Source: Verrucomicrobiota bacterium (lineage in GTDB: Bacteria; Verrucomicrobiota; Verrucomicrobiia; Limisphaerales; CANJSG01). Taken from it: a DNA stretch of 54,899 nt. The stretch spans positions 1 to 54,899 of the forward strand of contig JBBQXJ010000026.1 of NCBI GenBank assembly GCA_038209745.1. Reading direction: 5' to 3'. This document shows, one piece after another, positions 3,836-19,169 of the stretch. A model generated the notes under the pieces. That model was given only the letters and a program-made list of their open reading frames with translations. It made no database searches and had not been told where the DNA came from. The translations under genes and the position numbers were made by a program. The number at the start of each line of letters is the position of its first letter. The first letter of the stretch is position 1.

Positions 3836-6800
3836 CTACTGCCGGAGCGCTTCGCCCGTCCGGCTCTTGGAGACGGACATGATTTCTTCCGGGGTTCCTT
3901 CCGCCACCACCCGGCCACCCTCATCGCCGGCGTCGGGGCCGAGATCGATCACCCAATCGGCGGAACGGATGACGTCGAGGTTGTGCTCGACGACCAGCAC
4001 CGAGTGGCCGGCGTCGACGATCCGCTGGAAAACACCGATCAGGATTCGCACGTCCTCGAAGTGCAGACCCGTCGTTGGTTCGTCGAAGAGGAACAAGGTC
4101 GGTTTGTCGGACTTGCTGGCACGGGACTCGAAGTCCGCGAGATGCCGGACGAGCTTGAGCCGTTGGCTTTCGCCGCCGGACAGGGTGTTGATCGGCTGAC
4201 CCAGGCGAAGGTAGCCGAGGCCGATGTCCTGGAGCAGGGCGAAACTCTTGCGGGCGCGGAGGACGGACTTCGCAGCCGGCAATCCGTCGAGGAAGCCGAT
4301 GGCGTTGTCCACGGTGGCGTCGAGCAGGTCGGCGATGGACCATTCGAGCGCGGAGGGATTCGCGATGCGGGATTCCTGATGCCCGATGGAGGACAGTTTC
4401 ACCTCCAGGATGTGGCCTCGATAACGGCGGCCGTCGCAGTCGGGGCAGCGGACGAAGACGTCGCTGAGGAACTGCATCTCGATCTTCTCGAAGCCCGCGC
4501 CGCGGCAGCGTTCGCACTGGCCCTGAGCCGAGTTGAAGCTGAAGGCGCTGGCGTTCAAGCCGCGCTGCTGGGCCAGATCCGTCTGGGCGAAGAGTTCGCG
4601 TAGGTCTTCGAAGGCACCGATGTAGACGGCGGGATTGGAGCGCGGGGTTCGGCCGAGAGCCGTTTGATCGACGAGAACGACACGACCCAGTGCTTCGTGG
4701 CCGCTCAAAGTCGCGCTGGTAACGAGAGAGTCCTTTTCCCCATCGGAGTCTTTTTCTTTGTCGTCGTCCGAGGTGGAAGCCGGGGCGTCTTCCTCGCGGC
4801 CGAGCCGTTCCTCCAACAGAGGCATCAGAATGTCGCGGATCAACGTGCTCTTGCCCGAGCCGCTGACGCCGCTGACGCAGACGAAGCTCTGGAGCGGAAT
4901 CTCGACGGTGACATCGTGAAGGTTGTGGCGAGTCGCGTGCGCCAAAGTCAGGCGCGGAACACCGGGCTTGCCGCTGATGGGGCGGTGCTTCGGCTGGGCG
5001 GCGGATTTGCGGCCGGAAAGGTAGTCGGCGGTGAGGGAGGCCGTAGGCCGGGCATCCGTGTCCGGCGAGTTGCCGTTTCCGACTTTGCGGGACTTGCCGG
5101 GCAGGGATGCCCGGCCTACGGGGCGCAACATTTCATCCAGCGTTCCTTGGAAGACCAGGTCGCCACCGGATTCGCCGTGGCCGGGTCCGAGATCGATGAT
5201 CTGGTCGGCCGCGCGCATGACGTTCGACTCGTGTTCCACGACGACGACGGTGTTGCCCTGATCGCGCAGGCGATGAAGGACCTTTACCAATCGATCCGTG
5301 TCGCGGGGATGGAGGCCGACGCTGGGTTCGTCGAGGACGAAGAGCGTATTGACCAAGCGGGAACCGAGACAGGAAGTGAGGTTCACGCGCGCCGTTTCGC
5401 CGCCGGACAAGGTGCGCGTGGCTCGATCAAGCGTGAGGTAGCCGAGCCCGACCTCGTCAAGATAGCCAAGGCGCGCGCTGACTTCCTGAAGGGCGAGGGC
5501 GAGCGGGTCGTTGGCGGAAGCGCGGTGCTGAGCGGCCAGTGCATCGACGAGACCCAGCGCGTCGCGGACGGGCAGCAGATAAAAGTCGGACAGCGTGATC
5601 TGCGATTTCTGATTTCTGATTTCTGATTTTCGAGCTGTCGTCTCCGGGGCTGCGTCACCCTGGGCAAGGGAGTCCGTTCGAATGTTTCCGCCAAACCCCT
5701 CACCGTGCCCTCTCCCCGTCCGACTGGGAGAGGGTGGCCGTAGGCCGGGTGAGGGCTTTTCAATCGGAATTCCAAAATCGGCAATCGGCAATCGGAACAA
5801 CAGTGCTTCCGGCTGGAACCGTTGGCCGTCGCAGGTCGGGCATTTCGTGTAGGCGCGATAACGGGAGAGGAGCACGCGAACGTGCATTTTGTAGGCCTTT
5901 GATTCGAGCCAGCGGAAGTAGCCCTTCACGCCATACCACGCGTTGGGCCATTCGTGTTCCTTGTCCTTGCCGTAGCCGGGATCGCCGTCGACGACCCAGC
6001 GCTGCCATTTCTCGGGCAGGTCTCGGAAGGGGACGTTCAGCGGACACTTGTTTCGACCCGCCTCGTTCAGCATGTCGTTCTGGCACTGTTTACCGGTCTC
6101 GGTCTGCCATGGTTTGACCGCGCCCTCGGCCAGCGTCTTGGAGCGGTCGGGAATGGCGAGGTCGTAGTCGATCGTGATGATCCGGCCAAAGCCCTTGCAC
6201 TCGGGGCAGGCTCCGACGGGATGGTTGAAGCTGAAGAGCGCGGCGGTGGGTTCGCGGTAGTCGAGGTCGCAAAGGGCGCAGTGGAACCGATTGCTGAAGA
6301 GGAGCGGCTTTTCCTTGTTTGCACCCATGAAACGCACGGACACTTTGCCGTGGCCGAAGTGGAAGGCCTGTTCGCAGGCTTCGGTGAAACGGGCGCGGCT
6401 GGAAGCGGCGAGCTTGATTCGGTCCTGGATGACATCGATGCCGCTGGAGTGATCCCGGATGCCGGATGCCGGATGCTCGACAAGGGCGGCGGCGTCCTCG
6501 ATGCGAACGGGTTGGCCGTCGATCAGCAGTCGTTGGAAACCCTGCTTGGCCACGAGGGCTAGCTGTTCGGCGACGGAAAGTTTTTCCGAGAGGGTGAGAT
6601 GGAAGGTGAGGAGCGCTTCACGGAGGCCGGAGGCCGGAGGCCGGATACCCGATCCCTGATCCCCGATCCCTGATGCCGGATCTCTCAGAGAGCTCGGCTG
6701 ATCCCGGAGCTCCATCGCCGCGTAGCGGCTGCTGCCTTCATCCGGCATCGGGTATCCGGCATCGGGTGTCGTTTTGGTCAGCTTCTCCCAGATCGTCTGC

Positions 6801-7213
6801 GGCGAATCCTTCCGCACCGGCTGTCCGCACTTCCGGCAATACAGCGTGCTGACGTGCGGCCACAGCACCTTCATGTAGTCGCAGATCTCCGTCATCGTGC
6901 CGACGGTGGAGCGGGTGGAGCGGACGGCGTTGCGCTGCTCGATGGCGATGGCCGGAGGGATGCCCTCGATGCTGTCCACGGCCGGCTTGTCCATCCGGTC
7001 GAAAAACTGGCGGGCATACGGCGAAAAGGTCTCCACATAGCGGCGCTGGCCCTCGGCGAAGAGCGTGTCGAAGGCGAGGGAGCTCTTGCCGGAACCGCTC
7101 AATCCCGTGACCACGATCAGCTTCCGGAAGGGAAGATCGAGGTCGAGATTCTTGAGGTTGTTCTGGCGGGCGCCGCGGATGCGGATGCACGCCGGCGCGG
7201 CCGGTTTCGACAT
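3836..7213 (-). CDS. uvrA: Excinuclease ABC subunit A (UvrA family) with repeat-derived in-frame insertions
   Basis: 'GARQNNLKN', two Walker A motifs (GLSGSGKSS, GVSGSGKST), two LSGGE signatures, CxxC zinc fingers, 'DEPTTGLH', 'DWVIDLGP..GDEGG'. Confidence 0.95.
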   Translation of the reverse strand: MSKPAAPACIRIRGARQNNLKNLDLDLPFRKLIVVTGLSGSGKSSLAFDTLFAEGQRRYVETFSPYARQFFDRMDKPAVDSIEGIPPAIAIEQRNAVRSTRSTVGTMTEICDYMKVLWPHVSTLYCRKCGQPVRKDSPQTIWEKLTKTTPDAGYPMPDEGSSRYAAMELRDQPSSLRDPASGIGDQGSGIRPPASGLREALLTFHLTLSEKLSVAEQLALVAKQGFQRLLIDGQPVRIEDAAALVEHPASGIRDHSSGIDVIQDRIKLAASSRARFTEACEQAFHFGHGKVSVRFMGANKEKPLLFSNRFHCALCDLDYREPTAALFSFNHPVGACPECKGFGRIITIDYDLAIPDRSKTLAEGAVKPWQTETGKQCQNDMLNEAGRNKCPLNVPFRDLPEKWQRWVVDGDPGYGKDKEHEWPNAWYGVKGYFRWLESKAYKMHVRVLLSRYRAYTKCPTCDGQRFQPEALLFRLPIADFGIPIEKPSPGLRPPSPSRTGRGHGEGFGGNIRTDSLAQGDAAPETTARKSEIRNQKSQITLSDFYLLPVRDALGLVDALAAQHRASANDPLALALQEVSARLGYLDEVGLGYLTLDRATRTLSGGETARVNLTSCLGSRLVNTLFVLDEPSVGLHPRDTDRLVKVLHRLRDQGNTVVVVEHESNVMRAADQIIDLGPGHGESGGDLVFQGTLDEMLRPVGRASLPGKSRKVGNGNSPDTDARPTASLTADYLSGRKSAAQPKHRPISGKPGVPRLTLAHATRHNLHDVTVEIPLQSFVCVSGVSGSGKSTLIRDILMPLLEERLGREEDAPASTSDDDKEKDSDGEKDSLVTSATLSGHEALGRVVLVDQTALGRTPRSNPAVYIGAFEDLRELFAQTDLAQQRGLNASAFSFNSAQGQCERCRGAGFEKIEMQFLSDVFVRCPDCDGRRYRGHILEVKLSSIGHQESRIANPSALEWSIADLLDATVDNAIGFLDGLPAAKSVLRARKSFALLQDIGLGYLRLGQPINTLSGGESQRLKLVRHLADFESRASKSDKPTLFLFDEPTTGLHFEDVRILIGVFQRIVDAGHSVLVVEHNLDVIRSADWVIDLGPDAGDEGGRVVAEGTPEEIMSVSKSRTGEALRQ
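5043..5119. repeat. GTAG-type REP doublet (REPIN-like) inside uvrA
   Basis: GTAGGCCGGGCATCCGTGTCCGGC (5043-5066) and an inverted copy (5096-5119, 2 mismatches); each is GTAG plus a hairpin. Confidence 0.8.
5598..5795. repeat. Composite repeat insert in uvrA: opposed heptamer arrays around a CCCTCACC...GGTGAGGG hairpin
   Basis: (TCTGATT)n at ~5598-5630, hairpin at 5696-5755, (CAATCGG)n at 5761-5795. Confidence 0.75.
6621..6769. repeat. Opposed heptamer tandem arrays inside uvrA
   Basis: Nine CGGAGGC/CCGATCC-like units (6621-6683) and four oppositely oriented CCGGCAT/CGGGTAT units (6742-6769); shorter arrays at 6449-6476 and 4355-4389. Confidence 0.75.
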
Positions 7214-7553
7214 TGGGGGCGAAAGCTAGGGGGCGATGCCGGGAGCGTCAACCGGCCGGTCTCCTGTAACGGATCGGGCGTATTCGGCGTTGTTAGTCGG
7301 AAGCGGTGACGTCGTTTTCCGATTGGAAACACGTCGGTTTGCATTCGCCGGTGAGTGCGGCCAATGTTCGGCGCTCCAAGCAGTTGAAACGTCGGGAAAT
7401 CACCATTGAAACGCACTTGTTCAGCCGAGTCGGGCAGAGGGTTCCAAGGTTCCAACGGGACCCGCACCATCCTCTTTCGCCGATTGAGTGGAATAAGCCA
7501 CCGGTCTGATCCGTCTCTCCAACCTCAGAGAATCTCCGCAACCAAAAGCTCCA

Positions 7554-8093
7554 ATGAAAACCCTCAGTTCCTTCCTCGCCGTCGCCGCCACCCTGCTCCT
7601 CGCCGCCTCGCCGCTCCAAGCCCAGCAGCAGCGCAAGAGCCCGCATGAAACCGTCAGCCAGGTCGTGGACGGCGGCCGCGTCACCATCACCTACGGCAGC
7701 CCCTACATGAAGGGCCGAAAGATCTGGGGCGGTCTCGTGCCCTACGGCAAGGCCTGGCGCATGGGAGCCGATGAGGCGACTTCGCTGATCACCCAGAAGC
7801 CCCTCCTGTTCGGCGATACGACCATTCCGGCTGGCGCCTACACCCTCTATTTTGTCCCGAACGAAGACGGATCGGCCAAGCTCGCCTTCTGCAGCGTGCT
7901 CGGCGCCTGGGGCGTGCCCGTCGATGAGAAGAACGACGTGGCCCGCGTGGACGCCAAGAAGAGCGATTCCAACGGTGCGGCCGCGACCGAGCAGTTCACC
8001 GTGGCCATCGACAAGGGTTCGTCCGGCGGGGGAGTGATCAAGTTGATGTGGGAGAAGACCACCTACAGCATTCCGTTCACCGTGAAGAAGTGA
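7554..8093 (+). CDS. DUF2911 domain secreted protein
   Basis: Signal peptide; 'ITYGSPYMKGRKIWGGLVPYGKAWRMGADEAT', 'IPAGAYTLY'. Confidence 0.9.
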   Translation: MKTLSSFLAVAATLLLAASPLQAQQQRKSPHETVSQVVDGGRVTITYGSPYMKGRKIWGGLVPYGKAWRMGADEATSLITQKPLLFGDTTIPAGAYTLYFVPNEDGSAKLAFCSVLGAWGVPVDEKNDVARVDAKKSDSNGAAATEQFTVAIDKGSSGGGVIKLMWEKTTYSIPFTVKK

Positions 8094-8099
8094 GGTCCA

Positions 8100-8162
8100 C
8101 CCCTCACCCGGCCTGACGACCACCCAATCCCCATTGGGCGGGGGTTGGGCCGGGGCGAGGGG
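8100..8162. repeat. CCCTCACCCGG...GAGGGG palindromic repeat, intergenic copy
   Basis: CCCCTCACCCGGCCTGACGACCACCC...GGGGCGAGGGG; similar to the reverse complement of 5696-5755 and to 50572-50632. Confidence 0.65.
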
Positions 8163-8237
8163 CTCCCGCAGCGCGTCCATCGTTTGTCCAGAGTTGAATG
8201 ATTCGTTCCGAAACCGTCTCCCCTACCTTCTCCCAAC

Positions 8238-9116
8238 ATGATTCCGAGATACCTTGGGGCCCGCTTGGCCCTTGCCTGTGGTTTGATCGCGGCCCTCGCC
8301 GGAACCGCCATTGCGGCCGACCTTGAATTTCCCTCGCCCAGCCCCGCCGCCACCGTGAAGCAAAAGGTCGGGCTGACCGACGTCGAGGTCGTCTATTCGC
8401 GACCCGGCGTGAAAGGGCGGAAGATCTTCGGCTCGATGATTCCCTACGGCGAGGTTTGGCGAACCGGCGCCAACGCCGCGACCCGCGTTTCCTTCAGCGC
8501 CGACGTGACGCTCGGCGGAGCCAAGCTGGCGGCCGGTTCCTACGAACTGTTCACCATCCCCGGCAAAACCGAGTGGACGATCGTCGTGCAAAAACTCCCT
8601 GAGAAGGCGTCGTGGGGCGCCTATGCCTACAAGCCCGAGAACGACACGGCTCGCTTCAAGTCCAAGCCGATGAAGACCGGTGCGCCGGTCGAGAGCTTCA
8701 CCATCGGATTCGGCGACCTGCACGATACCGGCGCCACGCTGTTCATAGAATGGGAACGGACCCGAGTGCCCGTGAAGCTGGAAGTCGACACCGTCGGGAT
8801 GCTGACTCCGAAGGTCAAGGAAGCCATCGCCTCGGGCGCACCGCAGACGTGGAACTTCTACTACGGCGCGGCATCCCTGCTCTTCAACAACGGGGGCGAT
8901 TCCCAACAGGCCCTGGCGTGGGTGGATGAATCGATCAAACTGCGCGCAGGCTATCCCGGTACCCTTTTGCTGAAGACCCGGCTTCTGGTGAAGCTCGGTC
9001 GCAAGGACGAGGCCAGGGCGGTCGCGGCCCAGACGGTCGAGAGCGGACTCAAGCTGGAAGGTCCCGACAGCGTGATGGCCCGGCAGGCCAAGGAAATTGC
9101 GAAATCGCTCAAGTGA
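8238..9116 (+). CDS. DUF2911 domain protein with C-terminal TPR-like helices
   Basis: Signal peptide; 'YSRPGVKGRKIFGSMIPYGEVWRTGANAAT'; 'ALAWVDESI...LLVKLGRKDEA'. Confidence 0.9.
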   Translation: MIPRYLGARLALACGLIAALAGTAIAADLEFPSPSPAATVKQKVGLTDVEVVYSRPGVKGRKIFGSMIPYGEVWRTGANAATRVSFSADVTLGGAKLAAGSYELFTIPGKTEWTIVVQKLPEKASWGAYAYKPENDTARFKSKPMKTGAPVESFTIGFGDLHDTGATLFIEWERTRVPVKLEVDTVGMLTPKVKEAIASGAPQTWNFYYGAASLLFNNGGDSQQALAWVDESIKLRAGYPGTLLLKTRLLVKLGRKDEARAVAAQTVESGLKLEGPDSVMARQAKEIAKSLK

Positions 9117-11590
9117 TGCAATTGCTCCGCTCGATGTTCCGCCCGGTCGTCGCGGCCACGGTGGCGACGGTCGTGTTTGCCGGATTCGGCATCACGGCGG
9201 CCGAGCCGTCGCCGGTTGCGATCCGGGAGGAACTGCGGAGCTTCGGCACCTACGCGACGGTGCTCCACATCGCCGCCCATCCCGACGACGAGAACACCCA
9301 GTTGATCGCCTATCTCGCCGGCGGTCGGGGCTATCGCATGGGCTATCTCTCGGTCACTCGTGGCGATGGCGGCCAAAACGAGATCGGTCCGGAATTTGGT
9401 GAACGGCTGGGATTGGCCCGGACGCAGGAGCTCCTGGCCGCGCGTCGGATCGATGGAGGCCGGCAGTTTTTCACGAGAGCCCTGGACTTCGGCTACTCGA
9501 AGAGCGTCGACGAAACCCTCGCCATCTGGGACCGGAAACAGGTGGTGGCCGATGTTGTCCGTGTGATCCGCGAGTTCCGCCCGGACGTGATCGTGACCCG
9601 CTTTTCGCCCGAACCCAGCGGGACCCACGGCCACCACACCGCGTCGGCCGTCGTGGCGCTGGAAGCCTTCAAACTGGCCGGTGATCCGACGGCGTTTCCA
9701 GAACAGCTCGCGGAAGGCCTCACGCCGTGGCAGCCCGTCCGCATCCTGCACAACGGCTGGCGTGGCGAAGACGGCGGGGCGATCACGCTCAAAGCCGGAG
9801 GCAAGGACGCCGTCACGGGCGAGAGCTTCCAGGCCATCGCGATGCGCAGCCGCGCGCAGCACAAGACGCAGGGCTTCGGAATGCGTCCGGCGGGTGATGG
9901 TGAATGGACGGAGACCTTCCGGCTCCTGGGTGGTTCCGCGGCGACCAACGACATCATGGACGGCATCGACACGACGTGGGCCCGCGTGCCCGGGGGTGCC
10001 GAGGTGGCTCGTCTGACCGAAGAGGCGTTGGCGAAGTTCGACGAGAAAGATCCGGCGGCGAGCGTCCCGGCCTTGCTGGAACTCCGGAAGCGGGTTGCCG
10101 CGCTCCCGACCGATCCAGTGGTCGCGGACAAGCGGCGCCAGTTGGACCATGTGCTGCAAGGCTGCCTCGGCTTGACGGTCGAGAGCGTCCCGGCGGTGGC
10201 CGAAGTGGCGCCGGGCGAGACCCTGGCGATCCGCGCTCAAACGAGGGTGCGCTCCAGCGTGCCCGTTCGGTGGGTCGCCGTTAGTGTGCCGGGATTGGCA
10301 GACGTCAAACGGCCGGCCTCGCTCCAGCCGGGCGAAGCCGTCGCCCGGGATCTGTCTTTCATTGTGCCCAAGGCCACGCCGTTGACGCAGCCGTATTGGC
10401 TCAGAGAAGAGCCAACGACCGGAATGTTCCGCGTGGCCGAGACCAAACTGATCGGCCGGCCGGAGAATCCGCCCGCGTTCACGGTCGACTACGAATTCGA
10501 AGTCGGCGGCCAGACGCTGGTCGTGGCGGACGACCTGATGGCGCCGGCCGACGGCGGGAAGCCCGCGCGCCCTATTGCGGTGATCTCGCCGGTGTCGATG
10601 CGGTTCGAATCCGGCGTGGCACTGTTCATTCCGGGCGCGGCGAAGTTGATCCAGGTGGATGTGACCGCTGCGCGAGCGGATGCCTTTGGAATCCTGCATC
10701 TGGAAGCCCCGGGCGGCTGGACCGTTTCTCCTGTCAGCCAGGCCTTCAAGATTGCCCGGGCCGGCGAGAGCACGAAGGCGACCTTCACCGTGAAGGCACC
10801 CGCTTCAGCGGCGTCCGGGGCGCTGCTGGCTGTTGCGGAGATCGACGGAGCAAGGTTCAGCAATTCGCGCGTCGTGATCGATTATCCCCACATTCCGCTC
10901 CAGCTCCTCCAGCCGCAGGCCCGGCTCAAGGTGGCGGCGTTCGATGTCGCCACGCGGGGCAAGGCGGTCGGCTATCTTCCAGGCGCGGGCGACGACACCG
11001 CCGAAGCCCTGGAACAGCTCGGCTACAAGGTGACCATGGTCACGGGAGCGGACCTAACACCGGAGAAGCTCGCGGGTCTCGATGCGGTCGTGATCGGCGT
11101 GCGGGCGTTCAACGAGCGCAAGGATCTCGCCGCAAACCTCCCTGGCCTGTTCGCCTACGTCGAAGCCGGTGGCACGGTCGTCGCCCAATACAACCGTCCC
11201 AACGGGCTCCGCGCCCAACCCCTCGGGCCCTACGAAATCTCCATCGCCGGTCCCGCTCCCAAGCAGCGCGTGACGGACGAGACCGCCCCCGTTTCTTTCC
11301 TCGCTCCGGGCCATCCCGCGCTGACGACACCCAACAAGATCGGGCCGGCGGATTTCAACGGCTGGGTGCAGGAGCGGGGCGCGTATTTCCCGAGTTCCTG
11401 GGACGCGCACTACACACCGGTGTTGGCGATGAACGATCCCGGCGAAGAGCCGTTGAAGAGCAGCGTGCTCATCGCCCGTCACGGCAAGGGCTACTTCGTC
11501 TACACGGGCCTGGCGTTCTTCCGGCAACTTCCGGCCGGGGTGCCCGGCGCTTATCGCCTCTTCGCCAACCTGGTTTCCCTCGGAAAATGA
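9113..11590 (+). CDS. Secreted PIG-L/LmbE-family deacetylase with NEW3-like and class I GATase-like C-terminal domains
   Basis: Signal peptide; 'AAHPDDE', 'TRGDGGQN', 'HGHHTASA'; C-terminal 'GWVQERGAYF' and 'FFRQLPAGVPGAYRLFANL'. Overlaps upstream stop (GTG 9113 or ATG 9116). Confidence 0.9.
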   Translation: MMQLLRSMFRPVVAATVATVVFAGFGITAAEPSPVAIREELRSFGTYATVLHIAAHPDDENTQLIAYLAGGRGYRMGYLSVTRGDGGQNEIGPEFGERLGLARTQELLAARRIDGGRQFFTRALDFGYSKSVDETLAIWDRKQVVADVVRVIREFRPDVIVTRFSPEPSGTHGHHTASAVVALEAFKLAGDPTAFPEQLAEGLTPWQPVRILHNGWRGEDGGAITLKAGGKDAVTGESFQAIAMRSRAQHKTQGFGMRPAGDGEWTETFRLLGGSAATNDIMDGIDTTWARVPGGAEVARLTEEALAKFDEKDPAASVPALLELRKRVAALPTDPVVADKRRQLDHVLQGCLGLTVESVPAVAEVAPGETLAIRAQTRVRSSVPVRWVAVSVPGLADVKRPASLQPGEAVARDLSFIVPKATPLTQPYWLREEPTTGMFRVAETKLIGRPENPPAFTVDYEFEVGGQTLVVADDLMAPADGGKPARPIAVISPVSMRFESGVALFIPGAAKLIQVDVTAARADAFGILHLEAPGGWTVSPVSQAFKIARAGESTKATFTVKAPASAASGALLAVAEIDGARFSNSRVVIDYPHIPLQLLQPQARLKVAAFDVATRGKAVGYLPGAGDDTAEALEQLGYKVTMVTGADLTPEKLAGLDAVVIGVRAFNERKDLAANLPGLFAYVEAGGTVVAQYNRPNGLRAQPLGPYEISIAGPAPKQRVTDETAPVSFLAPGHPALTTPNKIGPADFNGWVQERGAYFPSSWDAHYTPVLAMNDPGEEPLKSSVLIARHGKGYFVYTGLAFFRQLPAGVPGAYRLFANLVSLGK

Positions 11591-11733
11591 AGCGCGTTCC
11601 CGATCCCTCCACCCAGGAAGAACCGCCGGGAGTGCCGGGATTCCGCACTTGGCGCGGCGTCTACGGCTTCGTCTTCGGATTCTTCGTGGTCTGTGTCCTG
11701 CTGCTCGCGCTCTTCACGCGCGTGTTCGCATGA
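11587..11733 (+). CDS. 48-aa single-pass membrane peptide (probable symporter accessory subunit)
   Basis: MKRVPDPSTQEEPPGVPGFRTWRGVYGFVFGFFVVCVLLLALFTRVFA; ATGA overlaps with both neighbours. Confidence 0.8.
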   Translation: MKRVPDPSTQEEPPGVPGFRTWRGVYGFVFGFFVVCVLLLALFTRVFA

Positions 11734-13433
11734 ACCTGATCGATTGGCTGGTGCTGCTCGGCACCATCGTGGGAATCGCCGCCTATGGAGCCTGGCATAC
11801 GCGCGGCACCCGCAGCCTGAACACCTATTTCAAGGGCAGCAGCACCAATGGCTGGGGCACCATCGGCCTGTCGGTCATGGCCACGCAGGCCAGCGCGATC
11901 ACCTTCCTTTCCATCCCGGGCCAGGCCTACGAAAGCGGCATCGGATTTGTGCAGAACTACTTCGGCCTGCCGCTGGCATTGATCATCGTCTGCGTGGTCT
12001 TCCTGCCCATCTATCGCCGGCTCGGGGTCTACACCGCCTATGAGTATTTGGGCCGGCGCTTCGACACCAAGACCCGCGTCCTGGGCGCGGTCCTCTTCCT
12101 CGTGCAGCGCGGGTTTTCGGCCGGGGTCACCATCTATGCGCCCGCGATCATCCTCTCGACCGTGCTCGGTTGGAGGGTCGATCTCACCATCGCGCTCACC
12201 GGATTGCTGGTCATCGTCTACACCGTGACGGGTGGCAGCGAAGCCGTGAGCCTGACGCAGAAGTGGCAGATGGCGGTCATCTTCGGCGGCATGGTCACTG
12301 CGTTCATCGTCCTGCTGATGCGGTTGCCGGAAGGGCTGGGCTTCAGCGGCGCGGCGCACATCGCCGGAGCGATGGGCAAGCTCGAAGCAGTCGATGTGTC
12401 GTTCGATCCCAGCAGGCGCTACACGCTCTGGACCGGTCTGCTGGGAGGGCTCTTCCTGTCGCTTTCCTACTTCGGCACCGACCAGTCGCAGGTCCAACGC
12501 TATATCGGGGGCGCGTCTCTGAGGGAAGGGCGCCTGGGGCTGATGTTCAACGGACTGCTGAAGATCCCGATGCAGTTCTGCATCCTGCTGCTCGGTGCGT
12601 TCGTCTTCGTCTTCTACCAGTTCGACAAACCGCCCGTGTTCTTCAACCAGGTGACCTGGGAACGCCATGCCGTGGGAACGAACGCCCCAATCTTCCGCGA
12701 CATCGAGCAGCGCCACGCCGCCGCCCATCAGGAGGCGAAGGACGACGTGACGAAGTGGCTGGCGATGCGCGGGGCGGGGGATGCAAAGGCGGAAGTGGCC
12801 ACCCGTATGGCCATGGTCGATGCGCAGGGCCGCGTCGACGCCATCCGGAAGGAAGCCAAGGCGGCGTTGAAGGCGGCGGACCCGGACGCGAAGACCAGGG
12901 ACTCGGACTACGTCTTCATCACCTTCATTCTTGCCCAGCTGCCCCACGGCGCGATCGGCCTGCTCATCGCTGTCATGGTGGCCGCCGCGCTGTCGTCGAC
13001 CGCCAGCGAGCTGAACGCGCTGGCCACCACCACGACCATCGATCTCTGGCGGCGGGTGCGGCCGTTGGCGGCGGCGGACGAGGCGCGGAACGTGCGCGTC
13101 GCGAAATGGCTGACTGGCTTCTGGGGCGTGTTCGCCATCGCCTTCGCGCTGTTCGTGGGCATGGCGGAGAATTTGATCGAGGCGATCAACATCCTTGGCT
13201 CGATCTTCTACGGCGTGGTCCTGGGGATCTTCCTCGTGGCGTTCTTCTTCAAATGGATCCGGGGGCCGGCGGTCTTCTGGGGCGCGGTCGCGTCCCAGTT
13301 GTTCGTCTTCCTCCTCTATTTCAGCCTCACCATCGGCTACCTTTGGTTCAACCTCATCGGCTGCGCCGCCTGCGTGCTGTTCAGCGTTTTGTTCCAGGCG
13401 CTTCTCGGCCGCAGCCAGACGGAGTCGGTATGA
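11730..13433 (+). CDS. Sodium:solute symporter (SSS family)
   Basis: Multiple TM helices; 'SVMATQASAITFLSIPGQAY', 'YFGTDQSQVQRY', 'AAALSSTASELNALATTT'. Start set at the ATGA overlap. Confidence 0.95.
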   Translation: MNLIDWLVLLGTIVGIAAYGAWHTRGTRSLNTYFKGSSTNGWGTIGLSVMATQASAITFLSIPGQAYESGIGFVQNYFGLPLALIIVCVVFLPIYRRLGVYTAYEYLGRRFDTKTRVLGAVLFLVQRGFSAGVTIYAPAIILSTVLGWRVDLTIALTGLLVIVYTVTGGSEAVSLTQKWQMAVIFGGMVTAFIVLLMRLPEGLGFSGAAHIAGAMGKLEAVDVSFDPSRRYTLWTGLLGGLFLSLSYFGTDQSQVQRYIGGASLREGRLGLMFNGLLKIPMQFCILLLGAFVFVFYQFDKPPVFFNQVTWERHAVGTNAPIFRDIEQRHAAAHQEAKDDVTKWLAMRGAGDAKAEVATRMAMVDAQGRVDAIRKEAKAALKAADPDAKTRDSDYVFITFILAQLPHGAIGLLIAVMVAAALSSTASELNALATTTTIDLWRRVRPLAAADEARNVRVAKWLTGFWGVFAIAFALFVGMAENLIEAINILGSIFYGVVLGIFLVAFFFKWIRGPAVFWGAVASQLFVFLLYFSLTIGYLWFNLIGCAACVLFSVLFQALLGRSQTESV

Positions 13434-13447
13434 CAAACGGAAGGGAA

Positions 13448-13811
13448 AACCACAGATGGACACAGATGGACACAGATGGGGTGTCCTCCGATGAAAGGCT
13501 GCGCCTCAGCCGGAACGATGTCTTGGAACGGGGCGCGGACGGTCACGTCCGCGAGTCAGGCTCCAATCTCCGAAGCCGCCATGTGAACCGGCGTGGCCAT
13601 CGTCCTCCCGTGTGGAATGCTGCCATCCCGGCCGTGGCTCCTTTCGCCGTGGGACGCGGCCTTGCGGACGTGACCGTCCGCGCTCCTCTTGCGTGGTTCT
13701 GCTTCAGTGATTCCCATGTCGTCTCCATTCCGTTCGGGCGGAGCAATGCTCCGCGCTCCCTGGCCCGCCAGATGGTTTTAGATCTCTGTCCATCTGTGTT
13801 CATCTGTGGTT
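13448..13811. repeat. Cassette bounded by inverted 3x10-bp arrays (AACCACAGATGGACACAGAT...), with a nested GGAG-type REP doublet
   Basis: Left arm 13448-13477, right arm 13782-13811; inner inverted pair at 13530-13552 and 13664-13686. Confidence 0.8.
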
Positions 13812-13872
13812 CGCCTCGGCAGTCTGTCTTGCGACTTTTGTGCCTTTTTGAGGCCTTCACTCTACGTCCGGT

Positions 13873-14649
13873 ATGAGCGCATCGCCCGTCATCTGTTTCG
13901 GCCAGCAACCCTGCGGCTTCTTTCCGCGGAGGTTCCTCTACGCCAAGTTCGTGACGGCCCGCCGGCTCCAGTCGGAGATCGGCGGCGAGATCGTCTTCTT
14001 CTACCACGACAGCGACCACGATCCGCGCGAGACCCGGACCACCTTGCGCCACCGCAAGACCGGCGAACCGATCGAGCTGAACTTCGCCTTCGACAACCCG
14101 GTTCAGCGAAAGTTTTCGCCGCTGTATCTGAAGCGCGTCCGCGCCGATTGGCACGCGAAGACCGCGCTGCAGTTGCCCGCCTATGTGGACCCTCGTTGGG
14201 TGGATGCGTTGCGTGGAAACGCGGCGTCGACCGTGGGCGAATTCTGCCTGGAGATGTATCGGCGAATGGGCTTGCTGGAAGGCGTCCGGGTCGCGAGATC
14301 GAGCGAAGCCGCGTTTCGACGGGCGGCTTGCGACGTGGCGGACTTCTTCGTCGACGTGCCCTTTGAAGACGAGATCGTCCGGGCCCGTTGGATGGAGGGC
14401 GCGTTGAAACTGCACAAGGGCGGCGACCACTTCGTCACGCTCCCTGCCGTGGACTTTGCCAAGGATCAGATCAGCCCGTCCCGCGACAGTCGGCTGCGCT
14501 GGATGCAGTCGGTCCTGCACTGCACCCACTACATTGCCGGCGCCGGCGAGGCCGCCTACTTGAACCACGAAGACGCTCCTGAAATCACTTTCGTAAACCG
14601 CGACACCATCGACCGATCCGATGAAGCCTACACCGACCTCCCAGCCTGA
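13873..14649 (+). CDS. Short BshC-like protein (putative cysteine-adding enzyme, Rossmann core only)
   Basis: 'FGQQP', 'VFFYHDSDHD', 'ISP...LRWMQSVL...YIAGAGEAAY' parallel BshC motifs GQQ, FW..EDHD, SP..LRP..Q and GPGE..Y; sits immediately upstream of bshB1 and bshA. Confidence 0.7.
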   Translation: MSASPVICFGQQPCGFFPRRFLYAKFVTARRLQSEIGGEIVFFYHDSDHDPRETRTTLRHRKTGEPIELNFAFDNPVQRKFSPLYLKRVRADWHAKTALQLPAYVDPRWVDALRGNAASTVGEFCLEMYRRMGLLEGVRVARSSEAAFRRAACDVADFFVDVPFEDEIVRARWMEGALKLHKGGDHFVTLPAVDFAKDQISPSRDSRLRWMQSVLHCTHYIAGAGEAAYLNHEDAPEITFVNRDTIDRSDEAYTDLPA

Positions 14650-15352
14650 CCTCGCGCCGTTGTTGGTCTTTGGCGCGCACCCCGACGACATCGAGTTTGG
14701 TTGCGGTGGTGTCGTGGCCAAGGAAGCCCAGACCGGACGCGCCGTGCACCTGGTGGTCTGCTCGCGCGGTGAAGCCGGTTCACGAGGGACGCCGGAAGAG
14801 CGGATGGCAGAATCGAAGACTTCGGCGGCGGTGCTCGGAGCGACCATCGAGTTCGTCCACCTCGACGGCGACGCCCACTTGGAGATCCGAGCCGCCCACG
14901 CGATCGGTTTGGCGGGCTTGATTCGGCGGGTGAAGCCGGCGGTCGTACTGGCGCCGAGCCTGGTGCAGAACCAACACCCGGACCATTGGCGGCTGGGCAC
15001 GCTGGTGCGGGACGCGGCCCGGTTGGCCCGCTATGGCGGATTGGCCGAACTGCGCGAATTCGCACCACACGCCATCAATTTGCTGCTGTTTTATGCAGTG
15101 ACGCCCGACGCCGAGCCTTCGGATCTATCGCCAGTGTTGGTGGATGTGTCCTCCGTGGTTCCAAAGTGGACTGCCGCGATGGAGGCGCATGTGACCCAGG
15201 TGACGTCCCGCAGCTATGTGGAGCTGCAATTGTCGCGGGCCCGATCCCGGGGACTGCAAGCCGGCGTCGAGTATGCCACGGCGCTCTTCCCGAACGATCC
15301 GCCGTTGATCGATTCACTGCGGCAATTGGGTTCGGGAGCCCGGAGTTTTTAG
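14621..15352 (+). CDS. bshB1: GlcNAc-malate deacetylase, BshB1-like (PIG-L family)
   Basis: 'FGAHPDDIEFGCGG', 'SRGEAGSRGTPEER', 'QHPDH', 'ARLARYGGL'; context with bshA. Confidence 0.8.
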   Translation: MKPTPTSQPDLAPLLVFGAHPDDIEFGCGGVVAKEAQTGRAVHLVVCSRGEAGSRGTPEERMAESKTSAAVLGATIEFVHLDGDAHLEIRAAHAIGLAGLIRRVKPAVVLAPSLVQNQHPDHWRLGTLVRDAARLARYGGLAELREFAPHAINLLLFYAVTPDAEPSDLSPVLVDVSSVVPKWTAAMEAHVTQVTSRSYVELQLSRARSRGLQAGVEYATALFPNDPPLIDSLRQLGSGARSF

Positions 15353-15366
15353 GGCGGATCTTTCGC

Positions 15367-15745
15367 AACCACAGATGGCCACAGACCAACACAGATAGCT
15401 GTCGCCCGATGGCCCACCTTTTCACAGCCGAAGATGTGTTTCAGATCGAAGGATGCGGGTGCGTGCCAGGTCCGGGCATTCTAACCGGGCCGGATTCGCC
15501 GACTGTGTCTATTGGAGAGAGAATCAGATTGAGAACGCCAGCCGTTCTGGAAATTGACTCGGTCGTCAGAGCGGTTGAGATGATTTCTTATCGAAAGAGA
15601 CCTGAGAAAATCTTTGTTCCGATTTTGCTCCCGATAGACATCTCCAAGGACATGGTTCCTGTCGGGACAGAAGCGCACCTGTTGAGGGAAATATAAGAAT
15701 GGCGGATCGTTTCGTATCTGTGTCCATCTGTGTTTATCTGTGGTT
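15367..15745. repeat. Second cassette bounded by the same inverted decamer arrays
   Basis: AACCACAGATGGCCACAGACCAACACAGAT (15367-15396) and ATCTGTGTCCATCTGTGTTTATCTGTGGTT (15716-15745). Confidence 0.8.
15409..15696 (+). CDS. 95-aa hypothetical cargo protein, EF-Tu domain II-like beta barrel
   Basis: 'AEDVFQIEGCGCV..PGI...IGERIRLRTP...IDSVVRAVEMI...ISKDMVPVGTE'; visibly more AT-rich than its neighbours. Confidence 0.6.
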   Translation: MAHLFTAEDVFQIEGCGCVPGPGILTGPDSPTVSIGERIRLRTPAVLEIDSVVRAVEMISYRKRPEKIFVPILLPIDISKDMVPVGTEAHLLREI

Positions 15746-15769
15746 TCCCTTTTCAAGGTTCCATCACCG

Positions 15770-16918
15770 ATGACCACCCTCGCACCTTTGAAAATTGGGA
15801 TCACCTGCTACCCGTCGGTGGGTGGCAGCGGCGTGTTGGCGTCGGCGCTGGGCGAGGAGCTGGCGAAGCGAGGGCATGAGATCCACTTCATCAGCTACGA
15901 GCGGCCCTTCCGTCTGCAGACCGATGCGCCCAGGCTGCAGTTCCATCCGGTGGTCATCAACGACTACGACCTCTTCAAGTATCCCGACTACACGCTGCCG
16001 TTGTCGGTGAAGATGGCCGAGGTCAGTCGTGATCACGGGCTCGACGTCCTGCATGTCCACTACGCGGTGCCGCACGCCACGGCCGCGATTCTCGCGCGGT
16101 CGATGTTGCCGGTCGGGCAGGCTCCAAAGGTCGTCACCACGCTCCACGGCACCGACACGACGCTGCTCGGACGGGACCCGGGCTACGGCCCCGCCATTCG
16201 GCACGCCCTGGACTGCTCGGATGCCGTGACCGCCGTTTCGGCCTTCTTGAAAGGGGAGAGCCAGCGGCTGCTCGGCTTCGGCGGTGAGGTCGACGTGATC
16301 CACAACTTCTTCGATCCGCATCCGCCGCAGCGTTCCCGGGAGGAAGTGCGACGGGAACTGGGCGTCGGGCCGGATGATTTGCTGCTGTTCCATTCGTCCA
16401 ACCTGCGACCGTTGAAACGCGTCGATCTCGTGCTCGAAGCGGTGGCGCGGCTCAAGACTGCGCGCTCCGTGAAGTTGCTCGTGCTGGCGGGCGGAAGCTT
16501 CGCTCCGTTCGGGGAATTGGTGCGCCGGCTGGGTCTGGAAGACCGTGTCGTCGTCCGCGAAAACGTCGCCACGATCGAAGACTATTTGCAGGCGGCGGAT
16601 CTCGGGGTGTTCGCATCGGAGACGGAAAGCTTCTGCCTCAGCATCCTGGAGGCGATGTGTTTCGACTGTCCGAGCGTTTCGACGCGGGTCGGTGGGATCC
16701 CGGAGCTGATCGGCGGCGAAGCGACCGGAATCATGGTTCCCCACGGCGACGCGGAGGGGCTTTCTCGCGGTTTGAGCGACTTGATCAACGACCCGGATCG
16801 GCGTCGGGCGATGGGCCGGGCGGCCAGGGAGCGAGCCCGCGGATTGTTCTCCTCCGCGGTGATCGTTCCCCAATACGAGGCGCTCTATCGCCGCGTGTGC
16901 TCGATGGAGCCGCGTTGA
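15770..16918 (+). CDS. bshA: N-acetyl-alpha-D-glucosaminyl L-malate synthase (GT4)
   Basis: 'KIGITCYPSVGGSGVLA', 'LDVLHVHYAVPHA', 'VTTLHGTD', 'SNLRPLKR', 'SETESF..LEAM'. Confidence 0.93.
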   Translation: MTTLAPLKIGITCYPSVGGSGVLASALGEELAKRGHEIHFISYERPFRLQTDAPRLQFHPVVINDYDLFKYPDYTLPLSVKMAEVSRDHGLDVLHVHYAVPHATAAILARSMLPVGQAPKVVTTLHGTDTTLLGRDPGYGPAIRHALDCSDAVTAVSAFLKGESQRLLGFGGEVDVIHNFFDPHPPQRSREEVRRELGVGPDDLLLFHSSNLRPLKRVDLVLEAVARLKTARSVKLLVLAGGSFAPFGELVRRLGLEDRVVVRENVATIEDYLQAADLGVFASETESFCLSILEAMCFDCPSVSTRVGGIPELIGGEATGIMVPHGDAEGLSRGLSDLINDPDRRRAMGRAARERARGLFSSAVIVPQYEALYRRVCSMEPR

Positions 16919-17069
16919 CTCCGTGAGGCTCCGTCGGAAGGCGGGACTACAGGCCGCGATGGTTGGCCGCGCGACGGAAATTTGTGTCAACCTGTGGCTC
17001 AAGCCGGGTCCGGTGGCCCGGCTGGTTGGCGGCTTGTATTTGGGAAGTCGCGCGCTAGAACTTTGATCC

Positions 17070-18419
17070 ATGAACCGCCGACAATTCCTCCAGTCCAGTG
17101 GTGCTCTCCTCGCCTTGTCCGCCCTTCCTGGTTACGCCGCCGATTTCGGCGACGTCAAAAAACGCGTGGGACTGATCGGGACTGGTTGGTATGGGAAGAT
17201 CGATCTCCTGCGGTTGATCCAGGTGGCGCCCGTCGAGGTGGTTGCCTTGTGCGACGTGGATACGCGAATGCTCGGCGAAGCGGCCGACATCGTGGCCTCG
17301 CGGCAGAAGTCCGGCAAGAAACCGCGCACCTACACGGATTACCGGGAGATGCTCAAGGAGAAGGACCTCGATGTCGTGCTCATCGGCACCCCGGACCATT
17401 GGCACGCATTGACCATGATCGCGGCCTGTGAGGCGGGGGCCGATCTCTACTGTCAAAAGCCGATCAGCTTGGACGTCGTCGAGGGGCAGGCGATGTTGGC
17501 CGCGGCCCGGAAACACAAGCGTGTTGTCCAGATCGGAACCCAACGCCGGAGCACGCCGCATCTGATCGAAGCCCGGGACCGGGTGATCAAGGAGGGGCTG
17601 CTGGGCAAGATCGGGCACGTGGAGATATGTTGCTACTACCACATGCGCGCGTCCGGCAATCCGCCGGACACGGCTCCGCCCGCAGAGCTGGACTACGAGA
17701 TGTGGACCGGCCCCGCACCGATGCGCCCCTACTGCAAATGGACCCACCCGCGCGGTTGGCGCGCCTTCACGGAATATGGCAACGGGATCGTCGGAGACAT
17801 GTGCGTGCACATGCTCGACATGGTTCGCTGGATGATGGATCTGGGCTGGCCGACCCGCGTCGATTCCTTGGGCGGCATCTACGTGGACAAGGCGAGCAAG
17901 GCCAATATCTCCGACACCCAGACCGCGACATTCTCCTTTCCGGAGCTGGACGTGGTCTGGACCCATCGTTCCTGGGGAGACGCGCCCGATCCGAAGTATC
18001 CGTGGGCGGCCATCTTCTACGGAGAGAAGGGAACGCTCAAAGCCGGAGTCAACGGCTACGACTTCTACCCGTTGGGCAAGAGCGAATCCACGCTGAAAGG
18101 CGAGCCGCTCTTCGAGTATGACAAGTTTCCCGAAGACAAGACCGAGAAGGACCTGGAGCGCCACGTCGCCTCGGCGGTCCGTTGGCACATGAAGGATCTG
18201 TTGGCGAACATCGCCACGCGGGGCAAGCCGGTGGCGGACATCGAGCAGGGCTACATCTCCACGACGTCCTGCATCCTCGCCAACCTCTCGATGAAGCTGG
18301 GCCGGAGCCTGGCCTGGGATGCGGCAAACGGTCGGATCGCGGGCGACGACGAAGCCAACCAGCTTCTTCGCCGGCCGTATCGCGCACCTTGGCAACATCC
18401 CGGAGCCGACCGCGTCTGA
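17070..18419 (+). CDS. Tat-exported Gfo/Idh/MocA oxidoreductase
   Basis: 'MNRRQFL' Tat signal, 'GLIGTGWYG', 'TPDHWH', 'YCQKP', 'GDMCVHMLD'. Confidence 0.93.
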   Translation: MNRRQFLQSSGALLALSALPGYAADFGDVKKRVGLIGTGWYGKIDLLRLIQVAPVEVVALCDVDTRMLGEAADIVASRQKSGKKPRTYTDYREMLKEKDLDVVLIGTPDHWHALTMIAACEAGADLYCQKPISLDVVEGQAMLAAARKHKRVVQIGTQRRSTPHLIEARDRVIKEGLLGKIGHVEICCYYHMRASGNPPDTAPPAELDYEMWTGPAPMRPYCKWTHPRGWRAFTEYGNGIVGDMCVHMLDMVRWMMDLGWPTRVDSLGGIYVDKASKANISDTQTATFSFPELDVVWTHRSWGDAPDPKYPWAAIFYGEKGTLKAGVNGYDFYPLGKSESTLKGEPLFEYDKFPEDKTEKDLERHVASAVRWHMKDLLANIATRGKPVADIEQGYISTTSCILANLSMKLGRSLAWDAANGRIAGDDEANQLLRRPYRAPWQHPGADRV

Positions 18420-18590
18420 GCTTGCGGGGACAAAAGGGAGGGAGAGTCGAACGAGCCAGGGAGCCTCTTCGGACACGGTTTCACCGGGATGCCGCTTTTC
18501 TTCTCCGCACAGTGGATGGAGGGGGACTCTTGAGCGCAGGCAGAAGTTCAGCGTCCGATGGTCTGAACTATTTGATCGATCCGGCTCCGG

Positions 18591-19169
18591 TCAGGACACG
18601 AGCCAGTCGTTCAAACGGGCCCGAGCCATCAACGTGGCCGGTTCGGCGGTGCCGGGGTCGATCCAGGCCGACCAAAGGTCGCGTGGGAGGACCAGCGGCA
18701 TCCGCGAAGCGAAAGCGGCCACGAGCGAGTCCGGTTCCCGGGTCAGCAAAGCGTAGCGGTGGTCCGCCGCCGAGGAAACATCTTCGGCCCACAGGCCGGC
18801 GATGCCCAGCAGTTCCCCGTCCCCGGGCTTGAACCGATGGAGGGTCTTGCGGCCGTGGTCCGTCTTCACCTCGACCCAGGCCGAGGCGAGGACGATGCAG
18901 CGCCGGGCCAAAAAGGCTGTCTGGAAGTTCGGGTTGTCCGCGACCGTCTCGCTCTTGGCCCCGATCACCGGCTGGGAGTTCCAGGAGTTCCTCCATCCCC
19001 AGCGGAGCACGGCCACCGTGGGACGTCCCCACCAGATGAAGACCGGGCCACGACCCATGGGACGGATCTCACCGGTCTCGATGTGCCCCGTGCTCCGCCC
19101 GCCGCACTCGGGCAAGAGGGGACGACGGTCCAATTCGTAGCGGGGGCCCTGGGGTGCGGGACTCTTCAT
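18591..19169 (-). pseudogene. Degenerate SOS response-associated peptidase (SRAP) homolog
   Basis: 'LRWG', 'GAKSETVADNPNFQTAF..RRCIV', 'GIAGLW', 'SRMPLVL...WID'; lacks the N-terminal MCGR and the His before RMP. Confidence 0.7.

Follow-up and report, generated by a model that had tools for sequence, protein, structure and literature searches.

A conserved Verrucomicrobiota gene cluster that may couple bacillithiol-type thiol synthesis to an exported LmbE-type hydrolase and a Na+:solute symporter

The closest described counterparts of the system considered here include the cytoplasmic amidases Bca (BshB2) and Mca. Both hydrolyse the amide bond formed by the 2-amino group of glucosamine (GlcN) and return GlcN-malate or GlcN-inositol to synthesis, as stated in the portions of two articles available to us (PMC4101496, PMC5790435). 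The same portions place the recycling of GlcN-malate by Bca in the cytoplasm (PMC5790435, PMC4101496) and name GlcN-malate as the substrate of the BshC step of bacillithiol synthesis (PMC5790435). In its accessible part, the 2018 review by Antelmann, Helmann and co-authors describes import or export of bacillithiol or its disulfide as not established, and the BshC reaction as never reconstituted (PMC5790435). For Verrucomicrobia and Planctomycetes, the accessible part of the survey by Hiras et al. (2018) gives no documented or predicted low-molecular-weight thiol (PMC6282198). Here we describe a cluster of eight plus-strand genes between positions 7554 and 16918 of a 54,899-nucleotide contig of a Verrucomicrobiota bacterium (JBBQXJ010000026.1, assembly GCA_038209745.1; this whole stretch is called the window), in which genes of bacillithiol-type (bsh) synthesis stand together with genes for an exported PIG-L hydrolase and a Na+:solute symporter (SSS).

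The region is best explained as one conserved functional cluster that couples cytoplasmic bacillithiol-type synthesis to a module in the cell envelope. The cytoplasmic part would consist of BshA, a BshB1-like deacetylase and a 258-residue protein, here called mini-BshC, that replaces canonical BshC. The envelope module would comprise an 825-residue exported hydrolase (PIGL825), one or two exported DUF2911 proteins, and the symporter with a 48-residue membrane subunit. We consider it likely that this module is functionally tied to bacillithiol-type metabolism. Such a tie had been proposed in an initial annotation made from the letters of the window, and it is supported by conserved synteny, by three independent gene orders that link the module with bsh genes, and by our finding no genome with the full-length PIG-L protein that lacks BshA.

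In a sample of 301 Verrucomicrobiota genomes, PIGL825 was found in 21, and an ortholog of the symporter in the same 21. BshA scored over its cut-off in 22 genomes, all 21 with PIGL825 included. The PIG-L gene lay 5' of bshA on the same contig and strand in 18 of the 21, at a distance of 3.3–4.2 kb. All 13 linked relatives that were fetched kept the order DUF2911, PIG-L, SSS, 258-residue open reading frame (ORF), BshB1, BshA, and the small peptide was found by tblastn in 10 of them. Two further genomes (G180 and G213) carry the PIG-L gene elsewhere; there the genes for the DUF2911-TPR protein, the peptide, the symporter and the 258-residue ORF remain together with bshB1 and bshA. In genome G247 the PIG-L, peptide and symporter genes stand together and a canonical bshC-bshB-bshA set lies on another contig; the canonical order is also present in genome G070 of the phylum.

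A cross-phylum scan with one genome per species, in which the best 80 of more than 735 matching stretches were kept, gave 72 distinct loci from Verrucomicrobiota, Bacteroidota, Planctomycetota, Acidobacteriota, Sumerlaeota and others. The symporter gene followed the large PIG-L gene within 1.5 kb on the same strand in 54 of the 61 loci with at least 2.5 kb of downstream sequence. Where at least 6.5 kb was available downstream, BshA was present in 21 of 50 loci: at 46% identity or more to the window enzyme it was found in 18 of 22 loci, all in the gene order of the window, and below 46% in 3 of 28, in other orders. Of these three, L075 (an Aminicenantes record) has on one strand DUF2911, PIG-L, canonical BshC (500.6 bits), BshB1 (260.5), BshA (533.7) and SSS. 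In L086, canonical BshC (379.3 bits) and BshA are divergent from the PIG-L-SSS pair and abut it, and L059 shows an arrangement of this type with frameshifts. Three arrangements of the module with bsh genes are thus seen, and the BshC in them can be of either kind. As a side observation, a small MscS-like gene lies 5' of the PIG-L gene in the Flavobacteriaceae loci.

Outside the phylum, all five distant PIG-L genomes have BshA. Among 201 Planctomycetota genomes, BshA was found in 95 (93 over the cut-off), and the four with full-length PIG-L hits (G305, G559, G683 and G746) all have BshA. Counting all 12 hits, 11 genomes have it; the query was a 612-residue part of the protein of L056, which has a frame break, and the eight partial hits that share only the C-terminal part were counted apart. 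Among the genomes tested, none carried a full-length PIG-L of this type but lacked BshA, and the converse is common; the searches extended to about 2000 genomes. A block common in genomes lacking bshA, which the initial annotation had named as evidence against its proposal, was thus looked for and not encountered.

The source genome comprises 4.58 Mb in 140 contigs, with a G+C content of about 64% and a completeness of 92%; the window is its contig C26. Named relatives of the window proteins are Verrucomicrobiota, mainly Opitutaceae-like. The features of the cluster are listed in Table 1. The chained block of DUF2911-TPR, PIG-L, peptide and SSS genes proposed earlier could be read directly in the letters: the DUF2911-TPR stop and the PIG-L start overlap in GTGA (or TGATG) at 9113–9118, and the two following junctions are ATGA overlaps at 11587–11590 and 11730–11733. 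Further downstream, bshB1 shares a 29-nucleotide overlap with the 258-residue ORF. Hydrophobic N-terminal segments are present in both DUF2911 proteins and in PIGL825, and none is present in the three bsh-type proteins.

Table 1. Features of the cluster and the evidence for their assignment (bit scores are given with the model cut-off where available).
Feature	Position	Strand	Evidence
DUF2911 protein, 179 residues	7554-8093	+	PF11138 138 bits vs cut-off 27; signal-peptide-like N-terminus
DUF2911-TPR protein, 292 residues	8238-9116	+	PF11138 173.8 bits vs cut-off 27; signal-peptide-like N-terminus
PIGL825, predicted exported LmbE/PIG-L zinc hydrolase, 825 residues	9113-11590	+	PF02585 59 bits vs 28.2, residues 51-185
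Membrane peptide, 48 residues, one hydrophobic helix	11587-11733	+	ORF; helix residues 21-48
SSS symporter, 567 residues	11730-13433	+	TIGR00813 217 bits vs 184; PF00474 133 bits
Repeat cassette 1	13448-13811	no strand	30-nucleotide inverted ends of 10-bp units around a nested palindromic repeat
ORF of 258 residues (mini-BshC)	13873-14649	+	Structural likeness to BshC core
BshB1-like GlcNAc-malate deacetylase, 243 residues, predicted cytoplasmic	14621-15352	+	PF02585 78.1 bits; TIGR04001 133 bits vs 182.5
Repeat cassette 2	15367-15745	no strand	Inverted ends of the cassette 1 type; interior of lower G+C
BshA, N-acetylglucosaminyl-malate synthase (GT4)	15770-16918	+	TIGR03999 388.8 bits vs 273.7

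Two further genes lie on either side of this set. On the 3' side of bshA, a Gfo/Idh/MocA oxidoreductase is encoded at 17070–18419 (plus strand); its match to a twin-arginine translocation signal is weak and below the Pfam cut-off, its best NCBIfam model is a glycoside 3-dehydrogenase (147.7 bits vs a cut-off of 750), and it was not seen beside the cluster in the fetched relatives. On the other side, UvrA (1125 residues) is encoded at 3836–7213 on the minus strand and matches UvrA models of 924–943 positions in three stretches, so that it probably has insertions. An Rfam scan of 7000–17200 at E <= 0.1 matched nothing.

PIGL825 has the Pfam score, the HxDD + H motif and the Rossmann-like fold of the LmbE/PIG-L superfamily. 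Residues H56-P57-D58-D59 together with H172/H174/H175 were invariant in 12 sequences of 39–68% identity to the window protein, and the spacer of 113–116 residues lies inside the published range, LmbE proteins being defined, in the available part of the source, by two His and one Asp ligand and a spacer of 97–148 residues (PMC4101496). According to the same part, every characterised LmbE enzyme acts on a glucosamine core, where it cuts the 2-N-acyl or 2-N-acetyl bond (PMC4101496). In the AlphaFold2 model, with a mean predicted local distance difference test (pLDDT) score of 84.2, the N-terminal LmbE domain is followed by a helical linker, beta-sandwich domains and, at the C-terminus, an alpha/beta domain. 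Using Foldseek, the catalytic domain matched MshB best (1q7t_A, E 2.0e-9), followed by diacetylchitobiose deacetylases, LnmX, the BshB protein BC1534 and TT1542. The best curated sequence model was Mca (TIGR03446, 48.7 bits vs 277.15), and Bca/BshB2 (TIGR04000) scored 28.4 vs 195.25; because even the best model lies far below its cut-off, PIGL825 is assigned to the LmbE superfamily and to no characterised subfamily. For the C-terminal domain (residues 595–825) a profile search of the PDB gave nothing, and the ESM Atlas gave weak leads to ThuA, LBP_M and DUF2194, with scores of 0.86–0.89. The protein collection holds more than 7999 relatives of PIGL825.

The hydrolase had also been called secreted at the outset, and the relatives agree. 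By a crude window test, the PIG-L protein has a hydrophobic segment at its N-terminus in 54 of 63 loci, and the Bacteroidota proteins start with textbook signal peptides of the cleaved type, with AQA/AQ-type sites. These N-termini support an extracytoplasmic location of the PIG-L protein.

The 258-residue ORF matched no Pfam or NCBIfam model at E <= 0.01, the BshC models included. Its AlphaFold2 model (pLDDT 93.2) found BshC (4wbd) as the top Foldseek match with an E-value of 2.7e-9, and VIA-align superposed 242 of its 258 residues on residues 81–518 of Bacillus subtilis BshC (4wbd_A) with a Z-score of 20.1 and a root-mean-square deviation of 2.9 A. The next structural matches were class I lysyl-tRNA synthetase (Z 14.6) and other enzymes of the nucleotidyl-transferase fold (Z about 9). 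The protein is without the first ~80 residues of BshC and its long C-terminal part, and so does not have the architecture of full BshC, which the available part of the 2018 review gives as about 530 residues with an extended coiled-coil dimer domain (PMC5790435). By sequence no significant match to BshC was found. Against PDB chains the ORF gave chance-level matches only as a single query, and a profile of eight members found no BshC; hhalign of its family with four canonical BshC sequences gave an E-value of 0.037 at a probability of 1.4%, with the regions of the GQQ and DHD motifs aligned in order. The family collected with HMMER at E <= 0.001 has 244 representatives, many of them fragments or frame-broken; the full-length members have about 244–286 residues, those with clean sequences about 253–286, and no canonical BshC is among the members.

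BshC itself was originally found through co-occurrence and co-location with bshA and bshB, and the 258-residue ORF shows the same kind of association. It lies directly 5' of bshB1-bshA in all 13 fetched linked relatives as well as in G180 and G213, and it is present in 20 of the 22 cross-phylum loci with identities of 46% or more. Its position is that of canonical bshC in G247. Canonical BshC was found in none of three relatives with the ORF and in both BshA genomes without it, where it stands beside bshB-bshA. The BshC model TIGR03998 found nothing at E <= 10 in the 92%-complete source genome. The protein is best called a mini-BshC, predicted from its fold and position to act in the place of BshC and lying outside that family by sequence. 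The initial designation "bshC-like" holds for fold and position but not at the level of sequence models, none of which it matches.

The two other bsh assignments fared unequally. "bshA" is secure, since the equivalog cut-off was passed. For "bshB1" TIGR04001 is indeed the best model, but the score remains below the equivalog cut-off (Table 1). The start of BshA is most likely the ATG at 15770, as the GTG at 15740 lies inside cassette 2 and TIGR03999 aligns from residue 17 of the ORF beginning at 15740. We also considered the large PIG-L protein as the sole deacetylase of genomes whose cluster lacks bshB1. For four of the five genomes of this kind that were tested the idea was dropped, since they carry another PIG-L gene elsewhere; in the fifth, the metagenome-assembled genome G760, only the PIG-L of the 825-residue type was seen.

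The symporter passed the superfamily model only and no equivalog of known substrate (best PRK10484, 138 bits vs 401). The 48-residue peptide matched no Pfam or NCBIfam family. In nearly all loci, whether from Verrucomicrobiota, Bacteroidota, Acidobacteriota or another phylum, a similar small ORF directly precedes the SSS gene. In an alignment of 17 sequences W22 was invariant and Y26 was kept in at least 90%, giving a conserved W-x3-Y ahead of the helix, and the C-terminus is often F-S/A. When the peptide was modelled with the symporter, the interface score (interaction prediction score from aligned errors, ipSAE) was 0.77, compared to 0.00 for the best of three controls; of 157 solved complexes 116 score this high, as do 2 of 215 mismatched pairs, a rough calibration only, as own alignments were used. 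The runs agreed in at least 93% of contacts, with a partner pLDDT of at least 72. The peptide is thus probably a small subunit of the symporter, as judged from the model and the conserved gene arrangement.

The DUF2911 proteins carry their hydrophobic segments at residues 3–22 (179-residue protein) and 6–30 (DUF2911-TPR protein). In the latter, the TPR matches are weak and below the cut-off, and a sequence search of the PDB gave nothing. The gene for the 179-residue protein is found 5' of the large PIG-L gene in part of the relatives, and a DUF2911 gene is present in 47 of the 72 cross-phylum loci. In the literature, one metasecretome study with a single mention of DUF2911 was found.

The repeat cassettes reported between SSS, bshB1 and bshA proved to be real. 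Both are flanked by 30-nucleotide inverted ends that consist of three 10-bp units of the CACAGATGGA type, and the double-unit pattern of this type occurs in 32 copies over 19 contigs of the genome. Cassette 1 contains a second, GC-rich palindromic hairpin repeat (13530–13581 / 13635–13686), which is dispersed over many contigs. In metagenome contigs of four runs, the cassette ends had about 20-fold deeper coverage than the adjacent genes, indicating that they are multi-copy, and many contigs end exactly at 13448, 13810 and 15745. The cassettes were present at this locus in contigs of three other runs (X2, X5 and X14). No contig of the four runs shows an empty site with the genes directly joined; where joints occur, their inner letters differ, and they probably stem from other copies. 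In the 13 fetched linked relatives the two junctions measure about 10–160 bp and 0–130 bp, measured from the ends of tblastn alignments, compared to 440 and 418 bp in the window, and both repeat families occupy the intergenic junctions of the cluster in the source genome only, not at the junctions of the relatives. Since their repeats are dispersed genome-wide with multi-copy ends, the cassettes are nested repeats resembling repetitive extragenic palindromes or miniature inverted-repeat transposable elements, and not members of the gene set. Side by side with this we note that the inner parts of the CACAGATGGA-type repeat family range from about 25 to 320 bp depending on the site, and that cassette 2 contains a 95-residue ORF (15409–15696, plus strand) in a region of G+C 0.576 (15001–16000) vs about 0.64; neither this ORF nor two small minus-strand ORFs of cassette 1 gave a Pfam match at E <= 1.

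Earlier no terminator had been seen between the two halves of the cluster. We found no strong one either, but 11 terminator-like sites lie on both strands of 7000–18600. Their number shows no excess over shuffled sequences (9.5 +/- 3.0). Weak sites are located at 13678–13696, at 15326–15344, where the bshB1 stop is, and at 15558–15579. Promoter-like sites were not found in the same scan.

How the two halves of the cluster might work together can be outlined from the enzymes. N-acyl- or N-acetylglucosaminyl-malate compounds (the thiol, its disulfide, S-conjugates or N-acetylglucosamine (GlcNAc)-malate), released by the cell itself or present in the environment, would be found outside the cytoplasm. 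Exported PIGL825 would cut the sugar 2-amide, the symporter would bring in the GlcN-malate core, and this core would re-enter synthesis at the mini-BshC step, where cysteine would be ligated anew. Extracytoplasmic hydrolysis with GlcN-malate uptake is the simplest reading because GlcN-malate is both the product shared by cleavage of bacillithiol, its disulfide, its conjugates or GlcNAc-malate and the substrate of the BshC step. The PIG-L protein and the symporter fit a pair of enzyme and product importer, given their identical phyletic profiles and near-constant adjacency (the same 21 genomes and 54 of 61 loci, as above), and together they behave like an accessory to bacillithiol-type metabolism. 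For this salvage mechanism, in which exported hydrolase and Na+ symporter together recover the N-acyl-GlcN-malate core outside the cytoplasm, we see the chances as evenly divided. The wider generalisation, that diderm producers of bacillithiol-type thiols cycle the thiol across the inner membrane by means of a periplasmic LmbE amidase, a two-subunit Na+ symporter and a minimal BshC, is speculative and rather doubtful at present.

A number of observations weigh against a salvage system for bacillithiol, or lessen the value of the linkage. One family accounts for 16 of the 20 positive relatives in the phylum, so the 21 genomes do not represent 21 independent events. In a sample of 251 Bacteroidota genomes, BshA was present in all 70 genomes with the PIG-L protein and the latter in none of the 11 BshA-negative ones, which says little since BshA occurs in 240 of the 251 (a base rate of about 96%). 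PIG-L and bsh genes lie far apart or on different contigs in Bacteroidota, most Planctomycetota hits are likewise unlinked, and one partial Planctomycetota hit (G681) has no BshA match. Concerning the product, the thiol may differ from bacillithiol, because BshB1 scores below its cut-off and mini-BshC lies outside its family by sequence. Neither YpdA (TIGR04018 over cut-off) nor YtxJ (TIGR04019) was found in the 92%-complete source genome, so that these Firmicute bacillithiol partners seem to be missing or replaced here. In six cross-phylum loci (L036, L044, L046, L048, L051 and L058) bshA comes immediately after the 258-residue ORF and the cluster lacks bshB1. The cluster of the window contains no gene for a thiol exporter. 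Furthermore, the likeness of PIGL825 to the thiol amidases is weak, neither the Mca nor the Bca equivalog cut-off being reached. Finally, the long hairpins and weak terminator-like sites of the cassettes could split transcription in this genome.

Some contexts in Bacteroidota and Planctomycetota point to scavenging or catabolism and not to recycling, and they too count against the salvage mechanism. In the Flavobacteriaceae locus L052 a gene for a Gfo/Idh/MocA oxidoreductase of about 324 residues (14251–15225) overlaps the SSS stop, and L049, L050, L061, L085 and L088 resemble it; the GFO matches are weak in L049, L052, L061, L085 and L088. In a Pedobacter gandavensis record (L093, 4845–13858) SusC/SusD-like genes lie 5' of the PIG-L gene and DctA (545.8 bits) replaces SSS, a single case that fits an external dicarboxylate-bearing substrate. 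A TonB-dependent receptor gene adjoins the PIG-L gene in L043. Together with the missing linkage in the Bacteroidota sample, these loci would suit a nutritional role, in which bacillithiol-type or other N-acetylglucosaminides of neighbouring organisms are deacylated in the periplasm, imported and degraded for carbon, nitrogen or sulfur, the bsh linkage resulting from shared intermediates. Such a role is difficult to reconcile with the operon-like packing with biosynthetic genes in 18 of 21 phylum genomes, or with L075, where bshCBA is nested between PIG-L and SSS. A pure consumer would moreover not need BshA, and no module genome without BshA was met among those tested. We regard scavenging as unlikely.

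The substrate of PIGL825 could also be any other GlcNAc or N-acyl-GlcN compound. An unrelated amino sugar, such as chitin or peptidoglycan fragments or another GlcNAc glycoside, would leave the bsh adjacency to inherited gene order or common GlcNAc pools. By curated models the LmbE domain is no nearer to BshB or Bca than other members are, diacetylchitobiose deacetylases are among its structural neighbours, and the C-terminal domain is similar to domains found in enzymes acting on glycans (the ThuA and LBP_M matches above, a lead only). In three Chitinophagales-type loci, L066 (26–2437), L083 (7443–9950) and L095 (7202–9721), a Peptidase_M14 protein of about 800–840 residues is encoded directly 5' of the PIG-L gene on the same strand, which likewise speaks against thiol recycling there, and the linked genomes of the phylum are mostly kin. 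What makes this alternative improbable in our view is that the module and the bsh genes are found joined in three different gene orders, in lineages unrelated to one another, that the PIG-L profile is nested in the BshA profile at base rates of 22/301 and 95/201, and that the symporter remains with the bsh genes when the cluster breaks. The hydrolase might otherwise serve thiol chemistry of the periplasm, removing bacillithiol from S-thiolated envelope proteins or cleaving conjugates for disposal, with the symporter carrying another solute such as cysteine or malate. The export signals of the hydrolase and the DUF2911 proteins are in line with this, as is the closest curated model, a conjugate amidase, and the available part of the 2018 review treats it as an open question whether bacillithiol has a role in the periplasm, drawing the parallel to glutathione export in E. 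coli (PMC5790435). The identical profiles and the adjacency of hydrolase and symporter fit an enzyme and the importer of its product better, and no feature of the cluster indicates protein substrates; we give this possibility very little weight.

Taken as a bacillithiol-linked module, the cluster predicts a bacillithiol-type thiol in Verrucomicrobia and Planctomycetes. That it was missed earlier would be explained by a protein invisible to sequence searches standing in for canonical BshC. BshA over the cut-off in 93 of 201 Planctomycetota genomes contrasts with the lack of a predicted thiol there in the accessible part of the 2018 survey (PMC6282198). The module provides a concrete candidate for an extracytoplasmic branch of bacillithiol metabolism. 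If the proposed thiol cycle across the inner membrane is real, it would be the first route of extracytoplasmic turnover and uptake for a non-glutathione thiol, and it would provide Verrucomicrobia and some Planctomycetota with the redox thiol that has been missing for them. A BshC core of 258 residues may also be an easier object for the reconstitution of the BshC reaction. The exported PIG-L, the symporter with its peptide and the DUF2911 proteins are widespread and so far unstudied; a literature search, with subscription journals outside its coverage, found no paper on the PIG-L/peptide/SSS-bsh module.

Among known systems, the turnover of glutathione in E. coli follows the logic proposed here. 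There, periplasmic glutathione is cleaved by gamma-glutamyltranspeptidase. In both cases a thiol would reach the periplasm, be hydrolysed, and have its parts imported again; glutathione export to the E. coli periplasm is mentioned in the available part of the 2018 review (PMC5790435). The hydrolase differs, an N-terminal nucleophile hydrolase there and an LmbE enzyme here, as do the thiol and the transporter family, and no exporter was identified in the present cluster. Small membrane partners of SSS transporters are known from PanF-YhdT, ActP-YjcH and VC_2705 with its DUF4212 partner. As in these systems, the gene of a short single-helix protein lies 5' of the SSS gene and overlaps it, and the protein is predicted to sit against the transporter. 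The 48-residue peptide matches none of the YhdT, YjcH or DUF4212-type families in Pfam or NCBIfam, and its W-x3-Y with the following helix is specific to this symporter group.

PIGL825 shares with Bca (BshB2) and Mca the LmbE/PIG-L fold and the HxDD + H zinc site. Those enzymes are single-domain proteins with models of 217 and 283 positions, whereas PIGL825 has 825 residues, a signal-peptide-like N-terminus, two further domains and, as proposed, a dedicated importer. With the canonical bacillithiol pathway the locus shares its gene order, since BshC-like, BshB, BshA in the window corresponds to bshC-bshB-bshA of G247, G070 and L075. The main difference lies in BshC, for which the canonical model has 529 positions and the window a protein of 258 residues, without significant sequence match and with the core fold kept.

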